From a phage, in assembly GCA_037574385.1 (NCBI GenBank), contig GCA_037574385.1_4529.1: a stretch of 64,000 nucleotides of DNA. One strand, given 5' to 3'. The position numbers and the translations under genes are program-made. Shown in pieces: positions 6,500-59,630 of the stretch. The notes below the pieces were generated by a model. The model was not told where the DNA came from and did not search any database. It saw nothing but the letters and a program-made list of their open reading frames with translations. How positions within the stretch are numbered: position 1 is the first letter of the stretch; every line of letters starts with the position of its first letter.

Positions 6500-8315
6500 A
6501 GGACATCCATTCTTTACGAAGTTCTGAATCATCACCCAACAACATTTCAAAGAGTTCTTTCCAATTTTCAGGAAGTTTAACTACGTCGTACACAGGGTTT
6601 TGAATCATTTCACGATATTCTGACTTTTCAAGGGAGCCCAATCCCTTGATGTATCGAATACTATGCTTAGGCAGTGTATCTTTAGCTTCTTCATACTCAG
6701 CTACAGTATAAAACCATTTTTGAGTTTTGCCGATTTGTGCAATAATTACAGGTGTTTTAACAAAGCGAATACGTCCTTGTTCAAACAATTCAGGCCAATT
6801 ACTAAAGAAAGCAAGCAAAGCCGGATAGATACTTCCAAGACCGTCATGATCGGCATCGGTCATAATTGCAATATTACGATAGTTCGTATTCTCTGCCTTT
6901 TCACCAAGAATAAGACCTGTGATAGCACAGATATCAAAGAGCTCTTTGTTCTTCATCATATCGGCATATGACATACCCCAGCTATTCATCACCTTACCAC
7001 GTAATGGGAATCCGCCGTGTAGTTCACGGTCACGAACATCAATGAGATATCCAATTGCCGAATCACCTTCTGTTAAAAACAATGTCGTATCTGCATCTTT
7101 ACCGCATTGGTTAGCTTTAATATGCTTATGAACCTTAGCTTTAGTTGCCTTTTTAGCTGCTTTAGTTTCTGCAGCCTTTTCTGCTGCCAATTTACGAGCT
7201 AATGCTGCTTCAACAATAGGCATAATCAAGGCTTCGTTTTTAAGAAGTGCCTGAGCAATTTTCTTAGCATCTAATTGGATATGATTACGAATATCACCAT
7301 ACGTTGACGTTAAACGTTCTTTAGTCTGAGAATCAAAACGCATGTTGCTCATGTCTCTAATAAACATCAACATTGTGAGACATTCTTTAACACGAGCTTT
7401 AGTGACTTCAATACCCTTATATTTCTTTTTAATACCCGGCAAAAGATGTTCGCAAATATCATCCATTACACATTCAACATGATGACCACCATTTTTAGTA
7501 TGGATGTTATTCACATAAGTTAAATGACGGAAGCCATCCGGTGATGTTGTGAATGCTATAGAGACTTTATCATTTTCTTGAATGATGTTATCTTCACCAA
7601 ATTGTTTAGCAAATCGTTTAAAATTGCCATCAACCTTTTTACCATTAAATGTGAACTTGATATCAGGATAAACGACTGCCAATGTTTGAAGTCGGTCTAA
7701 AGTAATATCTAAATAAATTTGAGATAAATTATGCTCTTCAAATGAAGTGAAATCAGGAGTGAAGATTACTTTAGTGCCTTTACCTTTAGATTTCTTAGAA
7801 GACCATGATTTGTTTTCCATTCCGTTTGAACAGTTAACAGTGATTTCATTTTCGCCATCTGACGTGATGCCTGTAAACAACGTAGAGAAGATATTAGTTA
7901 AACTACTCCCGACGCCGTTCATACCACCTGTCTTGCGTTCAGAGTCGTCACCAAAGTTACCACCGGCCTTTGGAATAGTCCAGGCTGCTACAGGCCCAGG
8001 AATTTGTTCACCCGTTTGGTCGGTAACTAAACCTTGAGGAATACCACGTCCGTTATCTTCCACTGAAACTTGATTATTTTTAATTTGCACATCAATTTTA
8101 TTTGCAAACTTAAATGATGTACGAATAGCTTCATCAACCGAGTTGTCAATAATCTCATCGATTAATTTAACCAGACCAGGAACATATTCAACTTGTTGAT
8201 ATTTACCAAACAAAAAACGCTCATGTGCTTCTTTAGCTGAAGAACCAATATACATACCACTACGTTTCTTAATATGTTCTACATCTGACAGTACCTTAAT
8301 TTCATTTTTAATCAT
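6498..8315 (-). CDS. 39: DNA topoisomerase II large subunit (ATPase), unsplit gp39/gp60 form
   Basis: 605 aa; N-terminus MIKNEIKVLSDVEHIKKRSGMYIGS and GyrB-like ATPase/TOPRIM motifs match recalled T4 gp39; GAGGAG SD. Confidence 0.93.
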   Translation of the reverse strand: MIKNEIKVLSDVEHIKKRSGMYIGSSAKEAHERFLFGKYQQVEYVPGLVKLIDEIIDNSVDEAIRTSFKFANKIDVQIKNNQVSVEDNGRGIPQGLVTDQTGEQIPGPVAAWTIPKAGGNFGDDSERKTGGMNGVGSSLTNIFSTLFTGITSDGENEITVNCSNGMENKSWSSKKSKGKGTKVIFTPDFTSFEEHNLSQIYLDITLDRLQTLAVVYPDIKFTFNGKKVDGNFKRFAKQFGEDNIIQENDKVSIAFTTSPDGFRHLTYVNNIHTKNGGHHVECVMDDICEHLLPGIKKKYKGIEVTKARVKECLTMLMFIRDMSNMRFDSQTKERLTSTYGDIRNHIQLDAKKIAQALLKNEALIMPIVEAALARKLAAEKAAETKAAKKATKAKVHKHIKANQCGKDADTTLFLTEGDSAIGYLIDVRDRELHGGFPLRGKVMNSWGMSYADMMKNKELFDICAITGLILGEKAENTNYRNIAIMTDADHDGLGSIYPALLAFFSNWPELFEQGRIRFVKTPVIIAQIGKTQKWFYTVAEYEEAKDTLPKHSIRYIKGLGSLEKSEYREMIQNPVYDVVKLPENWKELFEMLLGDDSELRKEWMS

Positions 8316-8337
8316 GTTGTCTCCTCGTTATGAAGGT

Positions 8338-8364
8338 ATTCTATCATCCGAAATCTAAAGCAAA
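8338..8364 (-). promoter_or_regulatory. middle-type promoter (MotA box TTTGCTTTA, 12-nt spacer, TAGAAT) for gene 39
   Basis: Minus strand TTTGCTTTAGATTTCGGATGATAGAAT; MotA box abuts the T-run of terminator 8355-8380. Confidence 0.45.
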
Positions 8365-8380
8365 AAGGGCCGAAGCCCTT
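8355..8380 (-). terminator. intrinsic terminator
   Basis: Minus strand AAGGGC-TTCG-GCCCTT followed by TTTTGCTTT. Confidence 0.5.
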
Positions 8381-8804
8381 ATTTAAATTTAATTTTCTGA
8401 AGTGCATCAATTGCAGCCAAACGCCCTTGTTCACTTTTAACTGTAATGACCACATCGCCTGATACGATCACCGAACCATCAACAAATTCTATAGAGTCTT
8501 TTTTGAAATCGACAGCTGTATCTGGTTCCGGAACTTCTTCAAAGAATTTAAATTCTGCACCATAAATCAGAATATCACCTTGCATACTATGAATAGTTCG
8601 GCCATAATCGCCTACGGCTTCTACAGCAATCATTGAAACACCGTAACCAATCATCTCTTCCACAATAAAATCTTTAGACAATAAAGTAGTATGCAGATTA
8701 GTATTAAGACGTTTACCAGTCGTATTAAGAATTCTCAAGAAATTATCTTCCTGTCCTTTGATAATACGGTATTTCTTGCCAATTTCAAAACCTTTAAAAG
8801 CCAT
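8379..8804 (-). CDS. hypothetical protein (141 aa; goF position)
   Basis: ORF with ATG at 8804; size and position as T4 goF, no motif support. Confidence 0.45.
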   Translation of the reverse strand: MAFKGFEIGKKYRIIKGQEDNFLRILNTTGKRLNTNLHTTLLSKDFIVEEMIGYGVSMIAVEAVGDYGRTIHSMQGDILIYGAEFKFFEEVPEPDTAVDFKKDSIEFVDGSVIVSGDVVITVKSEQGRLAAIDALQKIKFK

Positions 8805-9683: not shown

Positions 9684-10208
9684 TCATTTTAGCAAAATAA
9701 AATCAACTTGTTCTGCCAATGAACGTCTGAACATTAATTGACAACTTCCGAGGATGAAATCAGGTGCTTCATAGACCGCGATGTAGTATCCTTTAGCTTT
9801 CAAGAGTTCAACATCTACCTGGTCATCAAACCATGCATAAACCGCGTCAACACTTTCAAATCCAAAATAGAACCCTTGAGCCCAATCTTCACTCAATTCA
9901 AATGTGTGCTCAATTCTATAGTATCTTAAGATATTTTGTTCAAGGAGTTTATCTTCATTTACTGTAGGACGATTAGGGACATTATAGTTGTCGCCGTGAT
10001 GGTAGAAATTACCTGAGAGTATTCCATGTTTATCAAGGAACTCCCATGTTTCTTCAGAGTTGTCGGTGCCCGACCAACCGTAAGGTGAGCGAGGTTCTTT
10101 ATTCCAAGAGGTTTCCCAAATTCTGACGGCTTTACCGTCTTCGATGGCAATTCCTGGTAATGATTCACGTTGAGTACAAAAACTACGTTCTACGCGGTAA
10201 ACTAACAT
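9684..10208 (-). CDS. hypothetical protein (174 aa)
   Basis: ORF with AGAGGAGAA SD; early promoter 10235-10263. Confidence 0.55.
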   Translation of the reverse strand: MLVYRVERSFCTQRESLPGIAIEDGKAVRIWETSWNKEPRSPYGWSGTDNSEETWEFLDKHGILSGNFYHHGDNYNVPNRPTVNEDKLLEQNILRYYRIEHTFELSEDWAQGFYFGFESVDAVYAWFDDQVDVELLKAKGYYIAVYEAPDFILGSCQLMFRRSLAEQVDFILLK

Positions 10209-10234
10209 ATTATTCTCCTCTGGTTGATACGGTT

Positions 10235-10263
10235 ATAATATCAAAACCAGAGGAGAAGTAAAC
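10235..10263 (-). promoter_or_regulatory. early promoter (GTTTAC-N17-TATTAT) with spacer complementary to downstream SD
   Basis: Minus strand GTTTACTTCTCCTCTGGTTTTGATATTAT; spacer TTCTCCTCTGGTT pairs with AACCAGAGGAGAA at the RBS. Confidence 0.5.
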
Positions 10264-10267
10264 AACT

Positions 10268-10687
10268 TTATGCGAAAGCAGCCGGGCTATATTTTTTAAT
10301 TTGGAATTCAGGAACTACCATGAACTGACCAGCGAAAACGATGTTATAAAGCTTAACACCATCTTCTACCCAACGGTCGCTAATAAATCCGGCGATTTGC
10401 TTAGTTTTCCATGGCGTTCCATCGGTTGCCGCAGCAATAGTGAATTCGTGGTCTTTTTCAACAGAAACTGATCTGCATAGTCCCCATTTGAACGCTTTTT
10501 CTTCTGGTTCAATGAATTGGCTTGAGACGTAGCCAATGTTGCCATCAGCATCACGAACTTTAACTTGATGTGGACTAAAGAGTCCACAACTTACAGAAAG
10601 AACTTCAACCAACTTCCCAGCAACTTTAGAGCGAGAAGCAACAGATACATATACGTAATCACCAATAGAGAGATTTGCAATATTCAT
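10268..10687 (-). CDS. hypothetical protein, paralog family member (139 aa)
   Basis: C-terminal FISDRWVEDGVKLYNIVFAGQF shared with the two upstream genes; AAGGAA SD. Confidence 0.55.
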   Translation of the reverse strand: MNIANLSIGDYVYVSVASRSKVAGKLVEVLSVSCGLFSPHQVKVRDADGNIGYVSSQFIEPEEKAFKWGLCRSVSVEKDHEFTIAAATDGTPWKTKQIAGFISDRWVEDGVKLYNIVFAGQFMVVPEFQIKKYSPAAFA

Positions 10688-10696
10688 AATAATTCC

Positions 10697-11182
10697 TTAA
10701 GCTTTACGAGGAGACACATAACGAGTGATTTCGGATTCTTTAACAACTCTGAAGTCACCTAAGAATACGATATTGTATAACTTTTCACCATCTTCAACCC
10801 ATTGGTCACTAATGAAGCCACACATAGTATCAGTTTTGCTTGGATAACCGTATTCATCGATGAAGTCAAATTCTTTATCAGTCTGGAATTCAACGCCTTT
10901 GCAAAGGGCCCATTTGAACTGTACATTATGCTCTGTGGATTCAACTTTTTCTCTTGAAGCAAAAGCACTACTCACAGGCGTTTCCAAGAACTTTGCACGA
11001 ACATAAGCAAATTTGGTTTCCTGTGTCCCAAAACTAGGAATAATACGAACCTTTACCTCAGAATCTTCATCTTTAACGCCTTCTTTAAGTTGAATACTTA
11101 CAACTTCGACCAATTTTCCTGCGGCTTTAGAACGAGATTTGTTAGATACGCGAACGATTTCACCAATAATACCAAGATTCAT
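10697..11182 (-). CDS. hypothetical protein, paralog family member (161 aa)
   Basis: Track ORF trimmed to ATG (MNLGIIGE...); shares SRSKAAGKLVEV and FISDQWVEDGEKLYNIVF with 10268-10687. Confidence 0.55.
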   Translation of the reverse strand: MNLGIIGEIVRVSNKSRSKAAGKLVEVVSIQLKEGVKDEDSEVKVRIIPSFGTQETKFAYVRAKFLETPVSSAFASREKVESTEHNVQFKWALCKGVEFQTDKEFDFIDEYGYPSKTDTMCGFISDQWVEDGEKLYNIVFLGDFRVVKESEITRYVSPRKA

Positions 11183-11212
11183 AATTTCTCTCTCTTTGTT
11201 TAAATTGAATTC

Positions 11213-11241
11213 ATTATACTCCATCCATCCTTGGATGTACA
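11213..11241 (-). promoter_or_regulatory. early promoter (TGTACA-N17-TATAAT), CCAAGGATGG-spacer family
   Basis: Minus strand TGTACATCCAAGGATGGATGGAGTATAAT. Confidence 0.5.
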
Positions 11242-11244
11242 ACA

Positions 11245-11739
11245 TTAATTAAGGATATTAACCACAGCACTACGTGGAACTACACTAAAATCACCTGCAT
11301 GAACAACGTTCAGAAGTTCAACACCGTCTTCAATCCACTGGTCAGTTACCCATCCATTTACTGGACCTGCGAAAGGACGTCGAATTGAAACATATTTACA
11401 CAGCAAATCAGTAGGCTCAATAGGCTTAATCAGAGTACCGTACATACAAGCGATATCCATATCAATACAGATGTCTTTAACGGGTTCTACTTCTTCAATC
11501 AACAGTTCAAAGTCTGTGCTTGGAAGGGCGGTAGTGGAAATTGTACCATATGAATTTTTAATTTCTAAGAATAACCAAGGGCCTTCAGCTTGTTTGATGA
11601 AGTTAACAATAGTGAAACTATTGCCTTGAGTGGCACCTAAAATTTCACAAAACTTTTCGTAAGCTCGCACTGAAGCACTGTACCAGTTGATTTGTTTTTC
11701 GTCTTTCAGGATGTAAGTAGCCGTAGTATTGATATTCAT
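11245..11739 (-). CDS. hypothetical protein, paralog family member (164 aa)
   Basis: C-terminal WVTDQWIEDGVELLNVVHAGDF related to the two downstream genes; early promoter 11771-11799. Confidence 0.55.
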   Translation of the reverse strand: MNINTTATYILKDEKQINWYSASVRAYEKFCEILGATQGNSFTIVNFIKQAEGPWLFLEIKNSYGTISTTALPSTDFELLIEEVEPVKDICIDMDIACMYGTLIKPIEPTDLLCKYVSIRRPFAGPVNGWVTDQWIEDGVELLNVVHAGDFSVVPRSAVVNILN

Positions 11740-11770
11740 AATGTTTTTCCTGTTTGGTTAAGATAGAAAG

Positions 11771-11799
11771 ATTATACTCCAACCATCCTTGGTTGTAAA
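11771..11799 (-). promoter_or_regulatory. early promoter (GTTTACA-N17-TATAAT), CCAAGGATGG-spacer family
   Basis: Minus strand GTTTACAACCAAGGATGGTTGGAGTATAAT; identical core at 52583-52611 and 53601-53629. Confidence 0.55.
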
Positions 11800-11805
11800 C
11801 TGATT

Positions 11806-32269: not shown

Positions 32270-32901
32270 TGTTCGCCTCGTAACATGGCACCTAGTGCAC
32301 CGCCAGGGTGGAACTTAAGGAAATCATTAGAGGTAAATCCGCGTTCAGACGAAAGGTTGATAGCGAACGTATCGATAAGCGCTAACAACAATGTAGTGGA
32401 CATAGTCGGAGCTAAAGAGTTCTCGTCAACTTCTACCGCGATACCGGTACAGAATGTATAATCAAAAAGAGCTTCGTATTCTTGTGGAATGTCAGGGTTA
32501 CAATGTAACAGAATCTGTTTAACCTGAGGACGAATCATACGAAGATGTTTAGCAACACCTATCATTTCTTCAGTCTTACCAGAACGACTGATGTGAACTA
32601 ATACATCATTAGGTGCAATGAATCCTGCATCACCGTGAGAATAATGCCCAGTGTTCAAATACATGCTAGGAATACCTAGTGAAGCAAAAGTCTCGGAAGC
32701 TTTAGTTGCGATATTAGCGTTCTTACCAACACCTGTAATAATTACACGACTTTCATAATTACTCAGTCCTGGGCGTCGAAGAGTTTCTAGAATAGCATTA
32801 TAACGAGCAGGGTTTTGACTAATTACTTTGGCCATAGCGGCCAAAGAAGAAGCTTGTTTTATGATTGCGTCAATAGCGATAGTGATTGGTGTAGTTTTCA
32901 T
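32266..32901 (-). CDS. SIS-domain sugar-phosphate isomerase (KdsD/GutQ-like arabinose-5-phosphate isomerase, no CBS domains)
   Basis: 211 aa; ITGVGKNANIATKASETFASLGIPS, ISRSGKTEE, LAPTMSTT, FHPGGALG match KdsD SIS-domain motifs. Confidence 0.7.
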   Translation of the reverse strand: MKTTPITIAIDAIIKQASSLAAMAKVISQNPARYNAILETLRRPGLSNYESRVIITGVGKNANIATKASETFASLGIPSMYLNTGHYSHGDAGFIAPNDVLVHISRSGKTEEMIGVAKHLRMIRPQVKQILLHCNPDIPQEYEALFDYTFCTGIAVEVDENSLAPTMSTTLLLALIDTFAINLSSERGFTSNDFLKFHPGGALGAMLRGEQ

Positions 32902-32941: not shown

Positions 32942-35653
32942 TCAAAAATCGAACATATCGAACAGAGATGCTTTCTTCTCGTAATCGAGTTTCGCTGCTG
33001 ATGTGAATCCTTCAAGTGGTTTAATAAATGTCTTCTCAAGGAGAACCGTGTAGTCCATCCAATGAAGTACGTCGTCTTTAATTAAATCTGTGATTTCAGT
33101 ACCAGAAGGCCATGCGATACATTTATCACCGAATGGGTTTCCTTCACGTAAAGGCAGAACATATACTTTTTCACCTTCTACAACTTGTGGTGCATCAATA
33201 TTACCTTTGATAGCCCGGTTATACGTTAGAATTCCACGAATATGGAACGGGCATTTGGGACCCGGGAATCCACCTACATCATATTTAGCAATGTTATTCG
33301 CAGAAGATACCGACGCGATGCTAATATAATTCAATTGACGGAATTCTTTTTCAAACTCTTTAAAATACTCTTGTAATGATTCTTCACCTTCCTGAAGCAT
33401 ACGACGAATACATTCCTTAAGAGCTTTCTGTACCGCTTTAGGAGTTGAAGATTTCTGTGTTTCGAGACCCATGATTTTGAGTTTAGGCTTAGCGTAACGA
33501 GTACCTTCCATATCCCACACGTTTAATGCATAACGTTTCTTACCAGTCCAAAATCCGCCAATACCTTTAGAACCGAGCGGAGGACCAGCGATAGCTTCTC
33601 GGTCCATGAACATCAAATGTTGCTTATTATTCATGTATTCGCACATTTCACGGAAACCTCTATCAATAGCAGGTTCCATACGTTCACGAGCGAACTTATC
33701 TAAGAAGTCTACCCAATGGTTGGTATCACGGAATTTAGATTCACCAACCTTATCAATAATTTTATCTGCAGATACATAAATGGAGTCTGTATCACCGTAT
33801 AGAACGAAAGCTTCACCTTCTGTACCACAAACTTCGTTCAGATATTCATTAACTTTACGTTCAATCCACTGTAAAGCCATTTGCCCGAATGTTGTGATTG
33901 CAGTAGCATTACGCAAATCATAATAACGGAACCAAACGTTGCCAAGTGCACCATAAAGTGAGTTGATAAGCAATTTACGGTTAATCTGTGCAGTCATACC
34001 TGCAACTTCAGTACGTTGAGCTCTAAACAACATTTCATTAAGAGATTTAGCAGACAACTTTTTAATCTTTTCTTTAATCTCGTCAGTGAAGTCGAAACGA
34101 TAATCAACATCTAATGGTTCGTCAACAGAAAGATTAGGATTATGCAATGCCTCTTTAATTATTTCACCATTACGTTGAGCTGCAAGCATGTAACCTTTAT
34201 GTTCTTTACGCTGATTAAAGACCTTAGTGATTTCAGTTGGAACTACACCATCACGGTCTTTATAATACATCATGCCATTAGGAGAGCAACTGTACACATC
34301 TGAAGGACGTTCAGCAACAGCGTTAATATAATCATGTAATGGAGCTACTTTAAACGTTCCTGCTATTGTTTCTGGGCTAATATTCACTTGGCGAATAATA
34401 CTTGGATACAGAGATGTAAGGTCGAAACTCATTACATATTTGTATCGATTTGGAATAGGTTCCTTAACAAAAGCGCCTGGGTAAGGTTGAACCGGGTGAG
34501 AACGACCTTGTGGAATCACCTTGTTCTGCTCTTTAAGGCTATTAAAAATAATAGCATCCCATGTTTTAATTGGGCTAAACACAGATTGAATCTGTATCTT
34601 AGCATAATAACCCATGTCCAAACTCAAGTTGATGAACTGACGCTTAGCATCAATTTGCAATACACGATACACGTCGATAATGTTATAAGAAATATATCGT
34701 TGGTGATTGCTTTCACGAAGCTTAGAAATAGGGCCGTCATATTTCAGTTTACCAACGTTCAATTCAAATTCTGAAATGTAATCCAGAGAATACGACGGTT
34801 GATTGGTAAAAGAGAATTTTTTGTAAAGGTCAATGTAATCAAGAACAGAGATACCGAACAATGTAATGATTTCACGAGAACCATACATGTTTTCGATAAC
34901 TTTAACATGAGTTTTACGATGTGGTGATAAACGTTTCGCAGTAGATTCGCCAAAAATATTCTTGATTCGGTTATACACATATGGAATATCAAATGACTCA
35001 ACGTTCCATCCGGTTAAAATGACAGGAGTTTTCTGTTGCCAGAAGTTGAGATATTCCATCAACAATTCTTTTTCGTTATCGAACGGCATATAAATGATTT
35101 TATCAATAATTTCGGATGGAACTTCATCACCACCTTGTTCTTGAAGCTTAGCAGCGATTTCAATAGACCATTCTTCTACATTACCATATGGAGAATTCAA
35201 TAGATCAAATACGTAAAACCTGTCGTCAATTGAGTCATAATGAGTGATAGCATCAATCGGATGTTTTGCTTGTGACGGCTCAGGGAACCCATCCGGAGAT
35301 GTTACTTCGATGTCGAAGTTAGCCACACGAATTTTTGTATGGTCGTATTTGATTTCATAGTTATAAGTGTCAGACAAATACGCCAATTTGAAATCGTCCA
35401 TGCCAAGTGCTTCAAGTCCGATATCTTCCATGCGTTTAATCCATTGGGAGGCATCACGCATATTAGCGAACAACTTACGAGTACACGACTTACCGTAGAT
35501 ATCGAAATATTTCGTAGCCTGACTTTCTGGACAATGAGCAAACAGTGATGGTTTATATTCTACTTCACGAGTACGTTCACGGCCATTAGAATCGATGTAA
35601 CGTTCAAAAATTGAATCACCGATCTGTTCAACCGTTAAGTAAAATTCTTTCAT
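32942..35653 (-). CDS. 43: DNA polymerase (family B, gp43)
   Basis: 903 aa; exonuclease FDIEVTS and polymerase YGDTDS motifs; length and N-terminus match recalled RB69 gp43. Confidence 0.95.
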   Translation of the reverse strand: MKEFYLTVEQIGDSIFERYIDSNGRERTREVEYKPSLFAHCPESQATKYFDIYGKSCTRKLFANMRDASQWIKRMEDIGLEALGMDDFKLAYLSDTYNYEIKYDHTKIRVANFDIEVTSPDGFPEPSQAKHPIDAITHYDSIDDRFYVFDLLNSPYGNVEEWSIEIAAKLQEQGGDEVPSEIIDKIIYMPFDNEKELLMEYLNFWQQKTPVILTGWNVESFDIPYVYNRIKNIFGESTAKRLSPHRKTHVKVIENMYGSREIITLFGISVLDYIDLYKKFSFTNQPSYSLDYISEFELNVGKLKYDGPISKLRESNHQRYISYNIIDVYRVLQIDAKRQFINLSLDMGYYAKIQIQSVFSPIKTWDAIIFNSLKEQNKVIPQGRSHPVQPYPGAFVKEPIPNRYKYVMSFDLTSLYPSIIRQVNISPETIAGTFKVAPLHDYINAVAERPSDVYSCSPNGMMYYKDRDGVVPTEITKVFNQRKEHKGYMLAAQRNGEIIKEALHNPNLSVDEPLDVDYRFDFTDEIKEKIKKLSAKSLNEMLFRAQRTEVAGMTAQINRKLLINSLYGALGNVWFRYYDLRNATAITTFGQMALQWIERKVNEYLNEVCGTEGEAFVLYGDTDSIYVSADKIIDKVGESKFRDTNHWVDFLDKFARERMEPAIDRGFREMCEYMNNKQHLMFMDREAIAGPPLGSKGIGGFWTGKKRYALNVWDMEGTRYAKPKLKIMGLETQKSSTPKAVQKALKECIRRMLQEGEESLQEYFKEFEKEFRQLNYISIASVSSANNIAKYDVGGFPGPKCPFHIRGILTYNRAIKGNIDAPQVVEGEKVYVLPLREGNPFGDKCIAWPSGTEITDLIKDDVLHWMDYTVLLEKTFIKPLEGFTSAAKLDYEKKASLFDMFDF

Positions 35654-51299: not shown

Positions 51300-51604
51300 T
51301 ATAATGTTCTCTCAAATTTGTGGAAGCATTTACGGCATTTCAATTTCAGGTTATCAGTGGTCCAGTTAACCAATTGAACCTGAATAGTTCCACATTCCGG
51401 ACACGGATGTTTTGCTGCCGATTTGGCAGCATTTTCACGTCGTTCAACCATTTTCATTATTTCGTTCCATGCCGGAGGAACGAACTCTTCTTTACCATGA
51501 ATTTTATCTCGCTGAACAAATTCAATCTTTGAACTATCGTCAATAAACTTAACTAAGCTGTGATTAGTGTTCATATCAATATCCTCTAAAAGACGTAGTT
51601 TCAT
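51299..51604 (-). CDS. zinc-finger protein (101 aa)
   Basis: CPECG...CRKC zinc-ribbon pattern. Confidence 0.5.
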   Translation of the reverse strand: MKLRLLEDIDMNTNHSLVKFIDDSSKIEFVQRDKIHGKEEFVPPAWNEIMKMVERRENAAKSAAKHPCPECGTIQVQLVNWTTDNLKLKCRKCFHKFERTL

Positions 51605-52554
51605 TATAACACCTCAATGGCATTTCGTAAACCATCCGCTTTCGCATTCAGAGCTTTTAACGATTTAGTTTGTTCTTTAATCTGGGCTTCGACTTCTTTC
51701 AGACGAGATTTGAGATATTCACGTTCTTCTCTTAAGTTATCAACTTTTTCTGCTTTAGGCTCTTTAATAGGCTTAGGCTTATACTCGTTAGGGTTCTTCA
51801 GTTTAATTTTAATTCGAGAACTGAATAACATTGAACCGTTATCTTCGGTTTCGTCGAACATTTCAACAACATCCATAGTCTGTAACATCATGCGAAGTTT
51901 ATAAGACAGAGAACGAACGGTTTTATTGTGCTTCTTAATTTCTTCAGCTTTCATGGTACCGAGATTACGTGAGTAGTAATAAGGAACCTGGATATCAATT
52001 GATAACGACGCGGTGCCATTACCAGTTGGTTTGAATACTGCAGTAACCCAATCTTTAACATGAACTTTATTTGTACGATCATCGCCGCCTGTGAATAATT
52101 TACATGAATGTTTAAAAAGCATATTCACTTGGTTATTGAATTCACAAGCAAATTTATCAGCAAATTTAGTTTCAGGAATGGTAGATAACCAATCAGCCAA
52201 ATGAGTCTTTTTAACATCATTAACAATAGTGAATTCAACCAAATCGGTTTTAGATGTCACAGATTTAATAAAGCTCGGCTTCATAAAGTTTTTAATGTTA
52301 TCGCGAGCTACAGTAGAAGATAATAAACGAGAACGTTTGAACCATTGAAGCAGTGTCCCTAATGAATGAGAATACGCATTCTGAGTATCTTTACAGATAT
52401 GATTTTCTTGGCCTGTGTATGTACCAAAATCGCGAAGAATACCACTTACTACATCTCGGTGTGGAACATCAAATCCTAGTGCACCAGTAGCGCGCTGAGC
52501 ATGAACGTTAGCGATAAGACCGGCAAAGTATTCAATGTAATGTGAACGTGTCAT
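51604..52554 (-). CDS. hypothetical protein with C-terminal coiled coil (316 aa)
   Basis: Early promoter 52583-52611; C-terminal heptad-rich segment. Confidence 0.55.
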   Translation of the reverse strand: MTRSHYIEYFAGLIANVHAQRATGALGFDVPHRDVVSGILRDFGTYTGQENHICKDTQNAYSHSLGTLLQWFKRSRLLSSTVARDNIKNFMKPSFIKSVTSKTDLVEFTIVNDVKKTHLADWLSTIPETKFADKFACEFNNQVNMLFKHSCKLFTGGDDRTNKVHVKDWVTAVFKPTGNGTASLSIDIQVPYYYSRNLGTMKAEEIKKHNKTVRSLSYKLRMMLQTMDVVEMFDETEDNGSMLFSSRIKIKLKNPNEYKPKPIKEPKAEKVDNLREEREYLKSRLKEVEAQIKEQTKSLKALNAKADGLRNAIEVL

Positions 52555-52582: not shown

Positions 52583-52611
52583 ATTATACTCCAACCATCC
52601 TTGGTTGTAAA
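52583..52611 (-). promoter_or_regulatory. early promoter (GTTTACA-N17-TATAAT), CCAAGGATGG-spacer family
   Basis: Minus strand GTTTACAACCAAGGATGGTTGGAGTATAAT. Confidence 0.55.
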
Positions 52612-52616
52612 CTGAT

Positions 52617-53573
52617 TTATGATTTTAATGCATTCATTGCGTTAAAAAGTTTAGAGTACTGCAACTGGAGATTGGTCACCACCTGTTGAGCATCACGAAG
52701 CTTAGCTTGTGCCTTATCAAGTTCAACAGACAGTTGGTCTACAGTAGCCTTGATTTGATTGTAATGATAATCTTCAGCCGGAAGAAGGTCATTAGAAACA
52801 TTTAGTTTTGCTGCCGACAGTTTGCACACATTTGGCAAACCTTTAAACATACCAGATTGTGCTGGAGAATATGCGCCTAGAACCTCTGCATTACCGACTG
52901 GTGTTGATGTAATATTGCCTTCGAACGTTGCATTTTCCTTTTTAAGATTTTTATAATATTCAGAGTCTTTGTGCCACCATGGTGCAGGAACCTTTTTACC
53001 AATAGATACACGAGCCTGGATAGCGATATGGCCCTTATTCTTGATAGGGTCGATAATATTAAGCTCACGAGAATAAATTGCTTTAATCTGGTGGATATTA
53101 TCACCTAAAACTTCCAACGCTTGGTGGAATACACGAGCAACGTTATCATTCTTAGGTTTATACGTAAGAGTGAACTCGTTCTCACTGATAACCATGGTTT
53201 CTAACTTATCGTAAGTATATTTCAAATGCTTCATGTTAATTGCTTGAGGACGAATACGAGAAGCAATGGCCATCAGATTGTTAAGGTTATTTCTGAACTG
53301 TTTAGCAAAATATTGTCCATAACCGCCAATACAAAAATTACGAAGTTTCTGTTTGGCCAGTAAACGACTGAACTCACCGTTTTTAATGAACTCTTTAACG
53401 GGTGTGTTAGTAACACATTCAAATTGAGTAAACTTACGAGAAGTAATCCCATAATATGAACAGATTTCCTCAATCTCTTCAGGAGTCTTTACAGGCATAC
53501 GGATAGGATTAGGTCCTGGAGTATATGCGTTCGAGGTAAATTCTTTGATAAGTTCTCTACGTGTAATAGCCAT
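52617..53573 (-). CDS. hypothetical protein with C-terminal coiled coil (318 aa)
   Basis: Track ORF trimmed to ATG (MAITRREL...) with GAGGAA SD; early promoter 53601-53629. Confidence 0.55.
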   Translation of the reverse strand: MAITRRELIKEFTSNAYTPGPNPIRMPVKTPEEIEEICSYYGITSRKFTQFECVTNTPVKEFIKNGEFSRLLAKQKLRNFCIGGYGQYFAKQFRNNLNNLMAIASRIRPQAINMKHLKYTYDKLETMVISENEFTLTYKPKNDNVARVFHQALEVLGDNIHQIKAIYSRELNIIDPIKNKGHIAIQARVSIGKKVPAPWWHKDSEYYKNLKKENATFEGNITSTPVGNAEVLGAYSPAQSGMFKGLPNVCKLSAAKLNVSNDLLPAEDYHYNQIKATVDQLSVELDKAQAKLRDAQQVVTNLQLQYSKLFNAMNALKS

Positions 53574-53600
53574 TTTATATTCCTCATGTTGAAAAAAATT

Positions 53601-53629
53601 ATTATACTCCAACCATCCTTGGTTGTACA
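53601..53629 (-). promoter_or_regulatory. early promoter (TGTACA-N17-TATAAT), CCAAGGATGG-spacer family
   Basis: Minus strand TGTACAACCAAGGATGGTTGGAGTATAAT. Confidence 0.55.
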
Positions 53630-54625
53630 TCATTCCTTAAGAAGTTTTACTACCTGAATAAGATTAGCTCGTTCTGTTTTATTTTTACCGTTCAGTCCGG
53701 CCAATCGCGAGATTTCATCGTCAGTTTGTTGAATAGTTACATTAAGTTCATTAATCAAAGCTTCAAAGTATTTGATTTGCTCAGCATGTTTTGATTCAAA
53801 TTTCTGAACCGGAATAACGTCTTGGTTCAGTTCATCAATAAGGTCTTTAAGAGCATCTTCTTGGTTGATATCATATTCAACTTCTTTTATTTCTTCAACG
53901 AGCTCGTCTTTATATCTAACGTCTTTTAGTCCTGGTGCTGGTCCTGAAATCTCTTCTTTAAGAGTACAAACATATCCAATACGGTATCCAGTTCCGTCTC
54001 GCTTGATATCAACTTCGTCGATAAATCCACAATGTTTAAGTCCAGAGCCGATTATGTCAAAATATCCTTGACGTCGTCCTTCAAACGTTACACGAACTAC
54101 TAAGACAGTTTTGCCACCAACCTTTTGAAGCTCACATTTATAAAAGTCTGTTGAACCTGAATAACGTGGATGAGTTTTAAAGTTCATCTGACGATCTAAG
54201 CCCATTTGTAAACGTGCTGTTACGGCCATAAAACGTGTTTGGTTCTCGTTAAGATGAGCAACGATCCATTTCAAAGGCATTTTACACTGTTCACGTCCGA
54301 ACAAATCAGTACGTCCTAGATTACGCAGGATGTTGTTAGAGTTAATCATCGACAGAACGTTAAGTTTATTCAGCGCGCTGAAGATTCCATCAGCCATTGA
54401 TTTTCCATAACCTTTACACGCTTTAATAAGTGCTCGCGGCAGATTAGCATAGATTTCGGACGGCATATGAAAATCAAATTTACTAGTCAGTAATTGATGA
54501 ACTTGGATAGCAATTTGCTCATAATTAAGTGCTCTGCGATCGTTATGGTCTTTAAACCACACTTTAATCTGTGAAGCACATAAACCGTTAATTTCATGTT
54601 TTACCGCATCAGATGTAATGCTCAT
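53630..54625 (-). CDS. hypothetical protein with C-terminal coiled coil (331 aa)
   Basis: GAGGAAATAG SD; promoter-like element 54661-54689. Confidence 0.55.
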   Translation of the reverse strand: MSITSDAVKHEINGLCASQIKVWFKDHNDRRALNYEQIAIQVHQLLTSKFDFHMPSEIYANLPRALIKACKGYGKSMADGIFSALNKLNVLSMINSNNILRNLGRTDLFGREQCKMPLKWIVAHLNENQTRFMAVTARLQMGLDRQMNFKTHPRYSGSTDFYKCELQKVGGKTVLVVRVTFEGRRQGYFDIIGSGLKHCGFIDEVDIKRDGTGYRIGYVCTLKEEISGPAPGLKDVRYKDELVEEIKEVEYDINQEDALKDLIDELNQDVIPVQKFESKHAEQIKYFEALINELNVTIQQTDDEISRLAGLNGKNKTERANLIQVVKLLKE

Positions 54626-54687: not shown

Positions 54688-55215
54688 TTATGCGTGAACC
54701 GTCTTTAAACGTTCTTCAAATTTCCGAAGAGTACTAATACGTTCTGATTTCTGTTTTGTGTAGTTTGCAATACGTTCTGAAGTGAGAGCGTATCGTTCGT
54801 TTACTGTTTCTTTCATGAAGTCAGGGATTTCACGAGAAGCTTTAATTTCATCAAACTTATCGATTACTGCCTGGTCTTCAGCGATTAAATTTTCGTACAT
54901 CTCGATATCTTTCTTGATAAACTCGATATCTTCCTGGGTTACTTTGGATAAACGAGATGCTTTATCCTTTTTGTACTGCTCGTTAGTTTCACGAGACCAG
55001 AATAATGTACGTTTTTTATTAGTGTTTTTGTAGACTTCCACAATTCCAACCGAATCGATGATAACAATCCAATTCCAGCGAGATTTGAAAATCTGACCTC
55101 CGTCCACGGTAATCTCGTTACCATAAGCAACGTCATTAAAGAACTTGCTTTGTGCTTCAGATTTAAATTTACCGTCGTTATAATTTACCAGGTTGAAAAT
55201 ATCTTTAGCGTTCAT
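54688..55215 (-). CDS. hypothetical protein (175 aa)
   Basis: GGAGG SD; early promoter 55243-55270. Confidence 0.5.
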   Translation of the reverse strand: MNAKDIFNLVNYNDGKFKSEAQSKFFNDVAYGNEITVDGGQIFKSRWNWIVIIDSVGIVEVYKNTNKKRTLFWSRETNEQYKKDKASRLSKVTQEDIEFIKKDIEMYENLIAEDQAVIDKFDEIKASREIPDFMKETVNERYALTSERIANYTKQKSERISTLRKFEERLKTVHA

Positions 55216-59420: not shown

Positions 59421-59630
59421 CTACCGATTGTGTTTTAAATGTTGATAAAGTTCTTCAACTTGTTTAGGGTCCAAAACAATTAGGTCATTTTCTTGACGAA
59501 GATAAATCCATCCCTTATCCCCAGGGCCATTTTTACAAAACATCACCGTCGTCATATCATCATCTTCAGCGCTTTCAGGTAAAAGTTCAAGTACGCCGTC
59601 TTCAGATTTTCCAGTATAATCGTAAAGCAT
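59421..59630 (-). CDS. hypothetical protein (69 aa)
   Basis: Trimmed to ATG with GAGGATATT SD. Confidence 0.4.
   Translation of the reverse strand: MLYDYTGKSEDGVLELLPESAEDDDMTTVMFCKNGPGDKGWIYLRQENDLIVLDPKQVEELYQHLKHNR

Follow-up and report, generated by a model that had tools for sequence, protein, structure and literature searches.

The repeats analysed here find their closest described counterparts in the early-promoter/stem-loop repeats (PeSLs) reported in RB49/phi1, T4/PST, and KVP40/nt-1 (Arbiol et al. 2010, PMC2839356; Comeau et al. 2014, PMC4122927). In the model proposed for PeSLs, repeats of this kind lying in hyperplastic regions recombine with one another, deleting or inserting the ORF that they flank, possibly via mini-circles (PMC2839356, PMC4122927). 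Related repeats have been described at the IP loci of T-even phages (Repoila et al. 1994, summarised in PMC2839356); according to that summary, they share with the cassettes described below T4 early promoters, weak AT-rich stem-loops devoid of polyG/polyC, and a cassette-like replacement of genes, but they sit at other loci, namely, the IP genes. A more distant parallel is offered by morons and integron cassettes, in which, as here, the mobile unit consists of one gene and its promoter; however, no integrase or attC-type site accompanies the present modules, the mobility of which would stem from homology between the promoters, acted upon by general phage recombination. As to the promoters themselves, those of the T4 early class have been described as being of the UP/-35/TGn/-10 type, and 58 early promoters have been predicted in RB69 (Nolan et al. 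2006, PMC1524935), the 2006 list consisting of coordinates and scores alone.

The window, that is, the whole stretch of 64,000 nucleotides under analysis, is judged from its sequence to be part of a Mosigvirus, an RB69-like T-even phage, and both regions of interest are 97–98% identical to Mosigvirus genomes such as ESh27, Shf125875, and phiE142. In the first region, the minus-strand genes run dda, dexA, motB.1, motB, ORF010, motB.2, cef; the second lies within the nrdC.x cluster, where genes and motif are likewise all on the minus strand. A 30-mer, GTTTACAACCAAGGATGGTTGGAGTATAAT, occurs on this strand with 0 mismatches at 11800–11771 and 52612–52583 and with 2 mismatches (ATGTACA...) at 53630–53601, and a variant, TGTACATCCAAGGATGGATGGAGTATAAT, is found at 11241–11213. 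The positions given in the initial annotation were correct within 1 nt; the motif, however, is a minus-strand sequence. No match to GTTTACAACCAAGGATGGTTGGAGTATAAT was obtained in 100 dinucleotide shuffles. The four copies, designated cassettes A to D, and the genes that they precede are as follows, the Pe numbers and scores being those of the RB69 orthologues.

11771 to 11800, minus strand: cassette A, predicted early promoter of motB.1 (Pe:8947, score 27.2).
11799 to 11794, minus strand: -35 box TTTACA of cassette A, followed by a 17-bp spacer and by the -10 box TATAAT at 11776 to 11771.
11795 to 11780, minus strand: dyad CAACCA-AGGA-TGGTTG in the spacer of cassette A.
11213 to 11241, minus strand: cassette D, predicted early promoter of motB, with -35 TGTACA and -10 TATAAT (Pe:8387, score 6.2); its spacer variant, CATCCA-AGGA-TGGATG, differs by a symmetric double change from A:T to T:A.
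52583 to 52612, minus strand: cassette B, predicted early promoter of nrdC.3, its 30-mer being that of cassette A (Pe:51019, score 27.8).
53601 to 53630, minus strand: cassette C, predicted early promoter of nrdC.5, with -35 TGTACA (Pe:52042, score 18.2).
11245 to 11739, minus strand: motB.1, 164 aa, between the direct-repeat cassettes A and D, which are 558 bp apart.
10697 to 11182, minus strand: motB, 161 aa, from the SD-proximal ATG at 11182.
52617 to 53573, minus strand: nrdC.5, 318 aa, with its ATG at 53573 after the SD GAGGAA, between cassettes C and B, which are 1018 bp apart.
51604 to 52554, minus strand: nrdC.3, 316 aa, predicted to be driven by cassette B.

Cassette C has the same spacer and -10 box as A and B. 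The similarity between A and B extends over about 75 nt, from the UP-like region through the cassette and TCTATCTTAAC to the ATG (11739 and 52554, respectively), whereas C and D have only the core of about 29 nt in common, with the stop codon of the upstream gene abutting it. Such likeness is exceptional for the window: 23 plausible early promoters on its minus strand agree on average at 6.3 of 16 spacer positions (sd 2.7), but the focal spacers agree at 15–16 of 16, and just one other pair among the 23 (284/44679) is equally close.

Each copy is a predicted T4-type sigma-70 early promoter. All four combine a 17-bp spacer with a perfect -10 box TATAAT, match the sigma-70 consensus at 11/12 or 10/12 positions, rank at the top of both scanned regions, and are followed 27–31 nt downstream, in the correct orientation, by an SD and the ATG of motB.1 (11739), motB (11182), nrdC.3 (52554), or nrdC.5 (53573). 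The -35 box is preceded by G in A and B (GTTTACA) and reads (A/T)TGTACA in C and D, a variant also present in at least four further early promoters of the window. Phased A-tracts resembling an UP element lie upstream of copy A (GTAAAACAGCGATAAAATCA, to about 11822) and of copy B (TTAAAATCATAAATCA); the corresponding region in C and D is the end of the preceding coding sequence. Unlike typical T4 early promoters, none of the four copies has the extended -10 TGn, the bases before the -10 box being GAG; most other early promoters of the window, in turn, have tgT before an imperfect -10 box. A perfect -10 box without TGn as against an imperfect one with it is ordinary sigma-70 compensation. A MotA-dependent middle promoter is ruled out, as no GCTT (Mot box) occurs in any of the four copies; the MotA box, with the consensus (a/t)(a/t)(a/t)TGCTTtA, is centred at -30 and replaces the -35 box.

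Copies A, D, B, and C have their RB69 orthologues in the published predictions Pe:8947, Pe:8387, Pe:51019, and Pe:52042, respectively (PMC1524935), which resemble them in the orthologous position, the GTTTAC-type -35 box, the -10 box, and the A-rich upstream tract. The early-promoter text and coordinate lists of that paper do not describe the near-identity of the four spacers or a role at indel junctions, and a full-text literature search for the spacer sequence and for RB69 or Mosigvirus transcript maps found nothing. One GenBank record, that of phage SA79RD, annotates cassette A as 'promoter'. The view of the initial annotation that these repeats are promoters is thus borne out by the consensus scores, the SD and ATG spacing, and the published RB69 orthologues. 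Promoter activity is inferred from sequence features and from the T4 and RB69 precedent: host sigma-70 RNA polymerase would fire all four copies immediately after infection, transcription would start about 7 nt past TATAAT (predicted +1 near 11764, 11206, 52576, and 53594), and motB.1, motB, nrdC.3, and nrdC.5 would each gain an early transcript of their own.

Compared with PeSLs, the focal cassettes are alike in having an AT-rich tract, a sigma-70-type early promoter, and a 3' SD and ATG, as well as in lying in hyperplastic regions, where single genes are present or absent between close relatives and one chimeric cassette marks the junction. They also fit the promoter consensus of the T4/PST PeSLs, TTTACW-N17-TAYWAT (PMC2839356, PMC4122927), and the dyad occupies the same place, between -35 and -10, as the stem-loop of one published subclass. 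The difference lies in the stem-loop itself: described PeSL stems are stable and often GGGG/CCCC, one of them with measured terminator activity, whereas the stem here is of 6 bp, AT-rich, without a U-tract, and not significant in its context; other promoters of the window, with fold z-scores of -4 to -7, fit the PeSL definition better than the focal copies do. Of the features that define a PeSL, the focal family has the promoter, the SD and ATG, the hyperplastic region, and the indel junction, its stem-loop being at best weak. We conclude that the family works like PeSLs and is most aptly classed as a stem-poor representative of them, a clear instance of a type of element known from earlier work and one that is ordinary for T-even phages.

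The cassette is found in 222 phage records with a 48-nt query. Mosigvirus genomes have 2–4 copies each, all within the region spanned by the window, and Dhakavirus genomes have 1–2; in the Dhakavirus genomes read, a D-type spacer lies before nrdC.4, the product of which has an N-terminus resembling that of Mosigvirus NrdC.3. The spacer is conserved across the two genera while the leaders diverge. Upstream of T4 motB, a different promoter is followed by a remnant, GTGGAGTATAAAATC, that can be aligned with the RB69-type cassette. An identity of the spacers this extreme, extending to Dhakavirus, goes beyond what a promoter needs and may be due to recent spread or conversion or, alternatively, to an additional constraint.

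The presence and absence of the intervening genes bear directly on the use of the repeats in recombination. At least 21 Mosigvirus records (21 of 156) have a cassette junction in place of nrdC.5, which is present in 133 records. AV109, which lacks nrdC.5, joins the left flank of C through one cassette to the leader of B, and the same succession, from the end of nrdC.6 through one cassette to the nrdC.3 leader, is read in AV109, p000v, G2469, ESCO47, and a metagenome contig (L024). The junction expected for a deletion of motB.1 was constructed in silico and then found in natural genomes: at least 20 single-piece junction records (18 phages) among the top 60 matches lack motB.1, and in AV118 and another metagenome contig (L020) the end of dexA is followed by an A-type spacer and by a D-type leader with motB. 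Every junction read (AV109, L024, p000v, G2469, ESCO47, AV118, L020) has one hybrid cassette at the join. Because the ESCO47 spacer is itself a hybrid, AACC...GGAT, the crossover in this case lay within the spacer. A swapped leader was suspected at first in genomes of the JS09 type, but reading of the sequence showed the normal arrangement. All four combinations of the two indels occur across Mosigvirus: nrdC.5 alone is missing from F2, motB.1 alone from S143_2 and VIPECOMC06, and both from AV118, AV115, and G2285, while the window has both. The nrdC.5 and motB.1 indels assort independently.

The copies are direct repeats of about 30–75 bp in two hyperplastic regions, 558 bp and 1018 bp apart, the identical runs being of 27 bp between C and B and of 10–11 bp between A and D; since these runs are short, recombination would be inefficient per infection. 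Phage homologous recombination would use the repeats as short homology patches, and recombination between copies would delete or insert the intervening promoter-plus-gene module, as proposed for PeSLs. The suggestion in the initial annotation that the duplicated promoters could be recombination substrates has held up well, in that natural Mosigviruses lack exactly the gene between the cassettes and have one hybrid cassette at the junction.

Could the repeats instead be leftovers of a tandem duplication of gene plus promoter, with no role in recombination, the missing genes being due to unrelated events? MotB and ORF010 are paralogues, and MotB.1 shares a C-terminal stretch of 36 aa with MotB, so that a duplication did occur in the motB region. 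Beyond that stretch, however, MotB.1 and MotB have nothing in common by BLASTP, and all-against-all BLASTP of the four served genes detected no full-length similarity (E>1 for most pairs); nor was any similarity detectable by BLASTP among nrdC.3, nrdC.5, and nrdC.6 or between genes of the motB and nrdC regions. The repeated unit is therefore the promoter and not a duplicated gene, and tandem gene duplication was rejected as the origin of the repeats. As all seven junctions read also fall inside a cassette, we consider the duplication account very unlikely. A promoter repeat of about 30 bp bounds the single-gene modules motB.1 and nrdC.5, the presence of which varies in all four combinations across more than 150 sequenced Mosigviruses, and this lends population-scale support to the modular-shuffling model of PeSLs in a genus that lies outside the phages analysed in the PeSL papers (PMC2839356, PMC4122927).

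Several details of the gene neighbourhood may be added here. T4 has the order dexA, motB.2, motB.1, motB, whereas Mosigvirus has dexA, motB.1, motB, ORF010, motB.2 (9684–11739 in the window), ORF010 being a MotB paralogue with 43% identity. The promoter cassette of motB.2 is kept in T4 and Mosigvirus alike, a pattern that would be consistent with promoter-plus-gene modules moving as units. In RB69 (record 8249–8489), cassette D is degenerate, with the -10 box TATAAA and GGACGG in the spacer, and motB.1 is apparently split or truncated, into a 133-aa CDS and the 29-aa ORF012, as against 164 aa in the window.

The cassettes also affect the prediction of gene starts. Two mechanical ORFs cross a cassette in frame: ORF 10697–11245 (182 aa) begins MLYIQGWMEYNEFNLNKEREI-M... 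and crosses cassette D, and ORF 52617–53633 (338 aa) begins MMYNQGWLEYNNFFQHEEYK-M... and crosses cassette C, both opening at ATGs inside the -35 region. At copy A, upstream of motB.1, the promoter DNA is out of frame and runs into stop codons, and the nrdC.3 ORF behind copy B opens at the SD-proximal ATG. The claim of the initial annotation that translation of the promoters creates false N-termini is accordingly supported at C and D, where the frame is broken in relatives, but the extension exists in only two of the four copies.

If the upstream ATGs were real starts, the promoter would also encode a genuine N-terminal extension (…YNQGWLEYN…), as might be supposed from the ORFs being open in the window and from the extended MotB annotated in some GenBank records; MotB has 175 aa in the record of Shf125875, where an 'alternative initiation codon at Met15' is noted, and 172 aa in that of SA79RD, both starts lying inside the cassette. 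The frame across the promoter is not conserved, however. Alignment with orthologues, proposed earlier as a check, shows it to be broken by indels: a 1-nt indel in the T-run that follows cassette C is seen in Shf125875, phiE142, and metagenome contigs, and indeed in most nrdC.5 loci, and the distance from cassette D to the motB ATG is 5 nt shorter in RB69. Because the T-run indel shifts the frame, the 338-aa ORF is aligned by tblastn only from residue 13/14 onwards in 39 of the 40 genomes sampled. The upstream ATGs, moreover, have no SD and overlap the preceding stop codon (the motB.1 stop codon at 11247–11245 overlaps the spurious ATG at 11245–11243, and the nrdC.6 stop TGA at 53632–53630 overlaps the spurious ATGATG start), whereas the downstream ATG lies behind a strong SD; at motB.1, the putative extension would be out of frame with stops. 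MotB of T4 (162 aa), RB69, and AV118 all start at the SD-proximal ATG. We give almost no credence to a genuine extension. The in-frame translation of the promoter at C and D is supported as an ORF-calling artefact, the proteins being predicted to start at the SD-proximal ATGs. Starts of motB and nrdC.5 homologues are sometimes placed inside the promoter in Mosigvirus records, and the same motB gene is annotated at 151, 161, 172, 175, and 182 aa, an inconsistency that can be corrected systematically. Taken as a whole, the explanation by promoter cassettes that serve as recombination patches and give rise to ORF-calling artefacts appears to us quite probable.

There remains the dyad within the spacer, CAACCA-AGGA-TGGTTG with GGAG directly after it. 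As an isolated 30-mer RNA, it folds with -6.9 kcal/mol (z = -2.3), and the stem pair that varies in nature, A:T, T:A, G:T, or T:G, is always pairable on the sense RNA, the natural single variants being G:T and T:G. These observations would fit a second role of the promoter at the RNA level, in which a read-through hairpin, CAACCA-AGGA-UGGUUG followed by GGAG, serves to attenuate transcription, to stabilise 3' ends, or, as a RegB-type site, to separate cistrons. Stem-loops between -35 and -10 are, besides, the commonest published PeSL subclass, and one has been shown to terminate (PMC2839356, PMC4122927). RegB cleaves GGAG in intergenic regions of early mRNAs, its strong site being GG*AGRAYARAA in unstructured RNA, and GGAGUAUAAU(C/G/A) partly fits this consensus (GGAGRAYARAA) but departs from it at position 5 (U, not R) and position 10 (U, not A). 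In the native context, from -35 to ATG, the fold of the four copies is no more stable than that of shuffled sequences (z = -0.4 to -1.4), with other promoters of the window reaching z = -4 to -7. The stem is not followed by a U-tract, and a terminator scan was blank at the cassettes, so that intrinsic terminator function was rejected; a search of the whole window against Rfam was likewise without a match. Natural variants repeatedly lose the loop-closing pair through a T-to-C change (GGACGG in RB69, IME281, NC-G, and the locus L006), the ESCO47 spacer has an A:A mismatch in the stem, and only one type of double substitution is known, the symmetric change to CATCCA...TGGATG shared by cassette D and the Dhakavirus copies. 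Scans of IMG/VR and of metagenomes for covariation, with a pattern that left the stem positions free (TNTACANNNNAGGANNNNTGGAGTATAAT in the metagenomes), gave 6 and 11 loci, nearly all of them Mosigvirus with the standard spacer, plus a chance match (L023), a variation too small to be informative. An RNA-level role is, on these grounds, unlikely.

The symmetry of the dyad may also be viewed at the level of DNA, as the target of a phage protein that would shut off a subset of early promoters (early shut-off, or autoregulation in the motB family) or direct recombination. In cassette D and in Dhakavirus, the change in one half-site is matched in the other, the spacer is conserved in two genera with diverging leaders, and motB and motB.1 are among the four genes predicted to be driven by the copies; the mechanism of T4 early-promoter shut-off is still unexplained in the literature, and the authors of the PeSL work speculated on a recombination protein that binds the stem-loop (PMC2839356). 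Against such a target stand the asymmetric natural variants (GGACGG, CAGCCA, and the ESCO47 hybrid) and the fact that spread by recombination suffices for the identity of the spacers; no candidate regulator was found. MotB was rejected as a specific operator-binding autoregulator, since T4 MotB is reported to bind DNA non-specifically and its knockdown to alter the T4 transcriptome barely (PMC7827196). We therefore regard a protein target in the dyad as distinctly unlikely. That the dyad and GGAG form a second selected signal, be it a RegB-type hairpin site on read-through RNA or an operator or recombination target of a phage protein, possibly connected with the shut-off of T-even early promoters, has in our estimation a small chance, and an extra function of the dyad of whatever kind may be given a similarly small chance in total. 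Should it be true, the cassette family would combine regulation and recombination in one module and be more than a copied promoter; a new question is opened only if the spacer dyad has a function of its own.

Other elements of the window touch on the same theme. Upstream of nrdC.6, at 54690–54626 on the minus strand, aaacGCTTTACCCAAGGACGGGTTATAAT resembles a MotA-box middle promoter (GCTTTA, 13 nt, TATAAT) and shares CCAAGGACGG in its spacer with the focal cassette; it is absent from the published RB69 middle-promoter list and may be a shortened relative of the cassette. At 32945–32920 on the minus strand, upstream of a gene starting at 32900, TGATATAATGCCAAGGACGGTAAAC contains the CCAAGGACGG core after a -10-like box and before the reverse complement of GTTTA, which may be a chance occurrence or a scrambled remnant.

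A second near-identical promoter family, (A/G)ACTCTTGAGAGCAGAGTATAATGCTCTC, is found at 284–255 and 44679–44650 (minus strand), with a GAGAGC/GCTCTC stem that encloses the -10 box; the T4 motB promoter (locus L005) is a cassette of this second family, its stem fully compensated as GGGACC/GGTCCC. In a third family, with minus-strand starts at 59421, 21518, 1057, and 545, the stem likewise encloses the -10 hexamer, as in TTGGTAGGA...TATAGT..TCCTACCAA, the fold z-score at 59421 being -4.4. Finally, a group of promoters at 10263–10206, 22830–22773, 59873–59815, 46104–46044, and 23264–23203 (minus strand) has anti-SD tracts in the spacers (TTCTCCTCTGGTT, TTCTCCAGTAGTTG, TCTCCTC, TCCTC, and TCTTCCTCT) that are complementary to the SD region of the next gene (AACCAGAGGAGAA, CAACTACTGGAGAA, and others), with compensatory differences between loci and fold z-scores to -6.9, -6.0, and -4.1. 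A similar anti-SD arrangement is found at the T4 motB.2 promoter. Read-through RNA would bury the SD in these structures, whereas transcripts from the proximal promoter would start inside the loop and leave the SD free.
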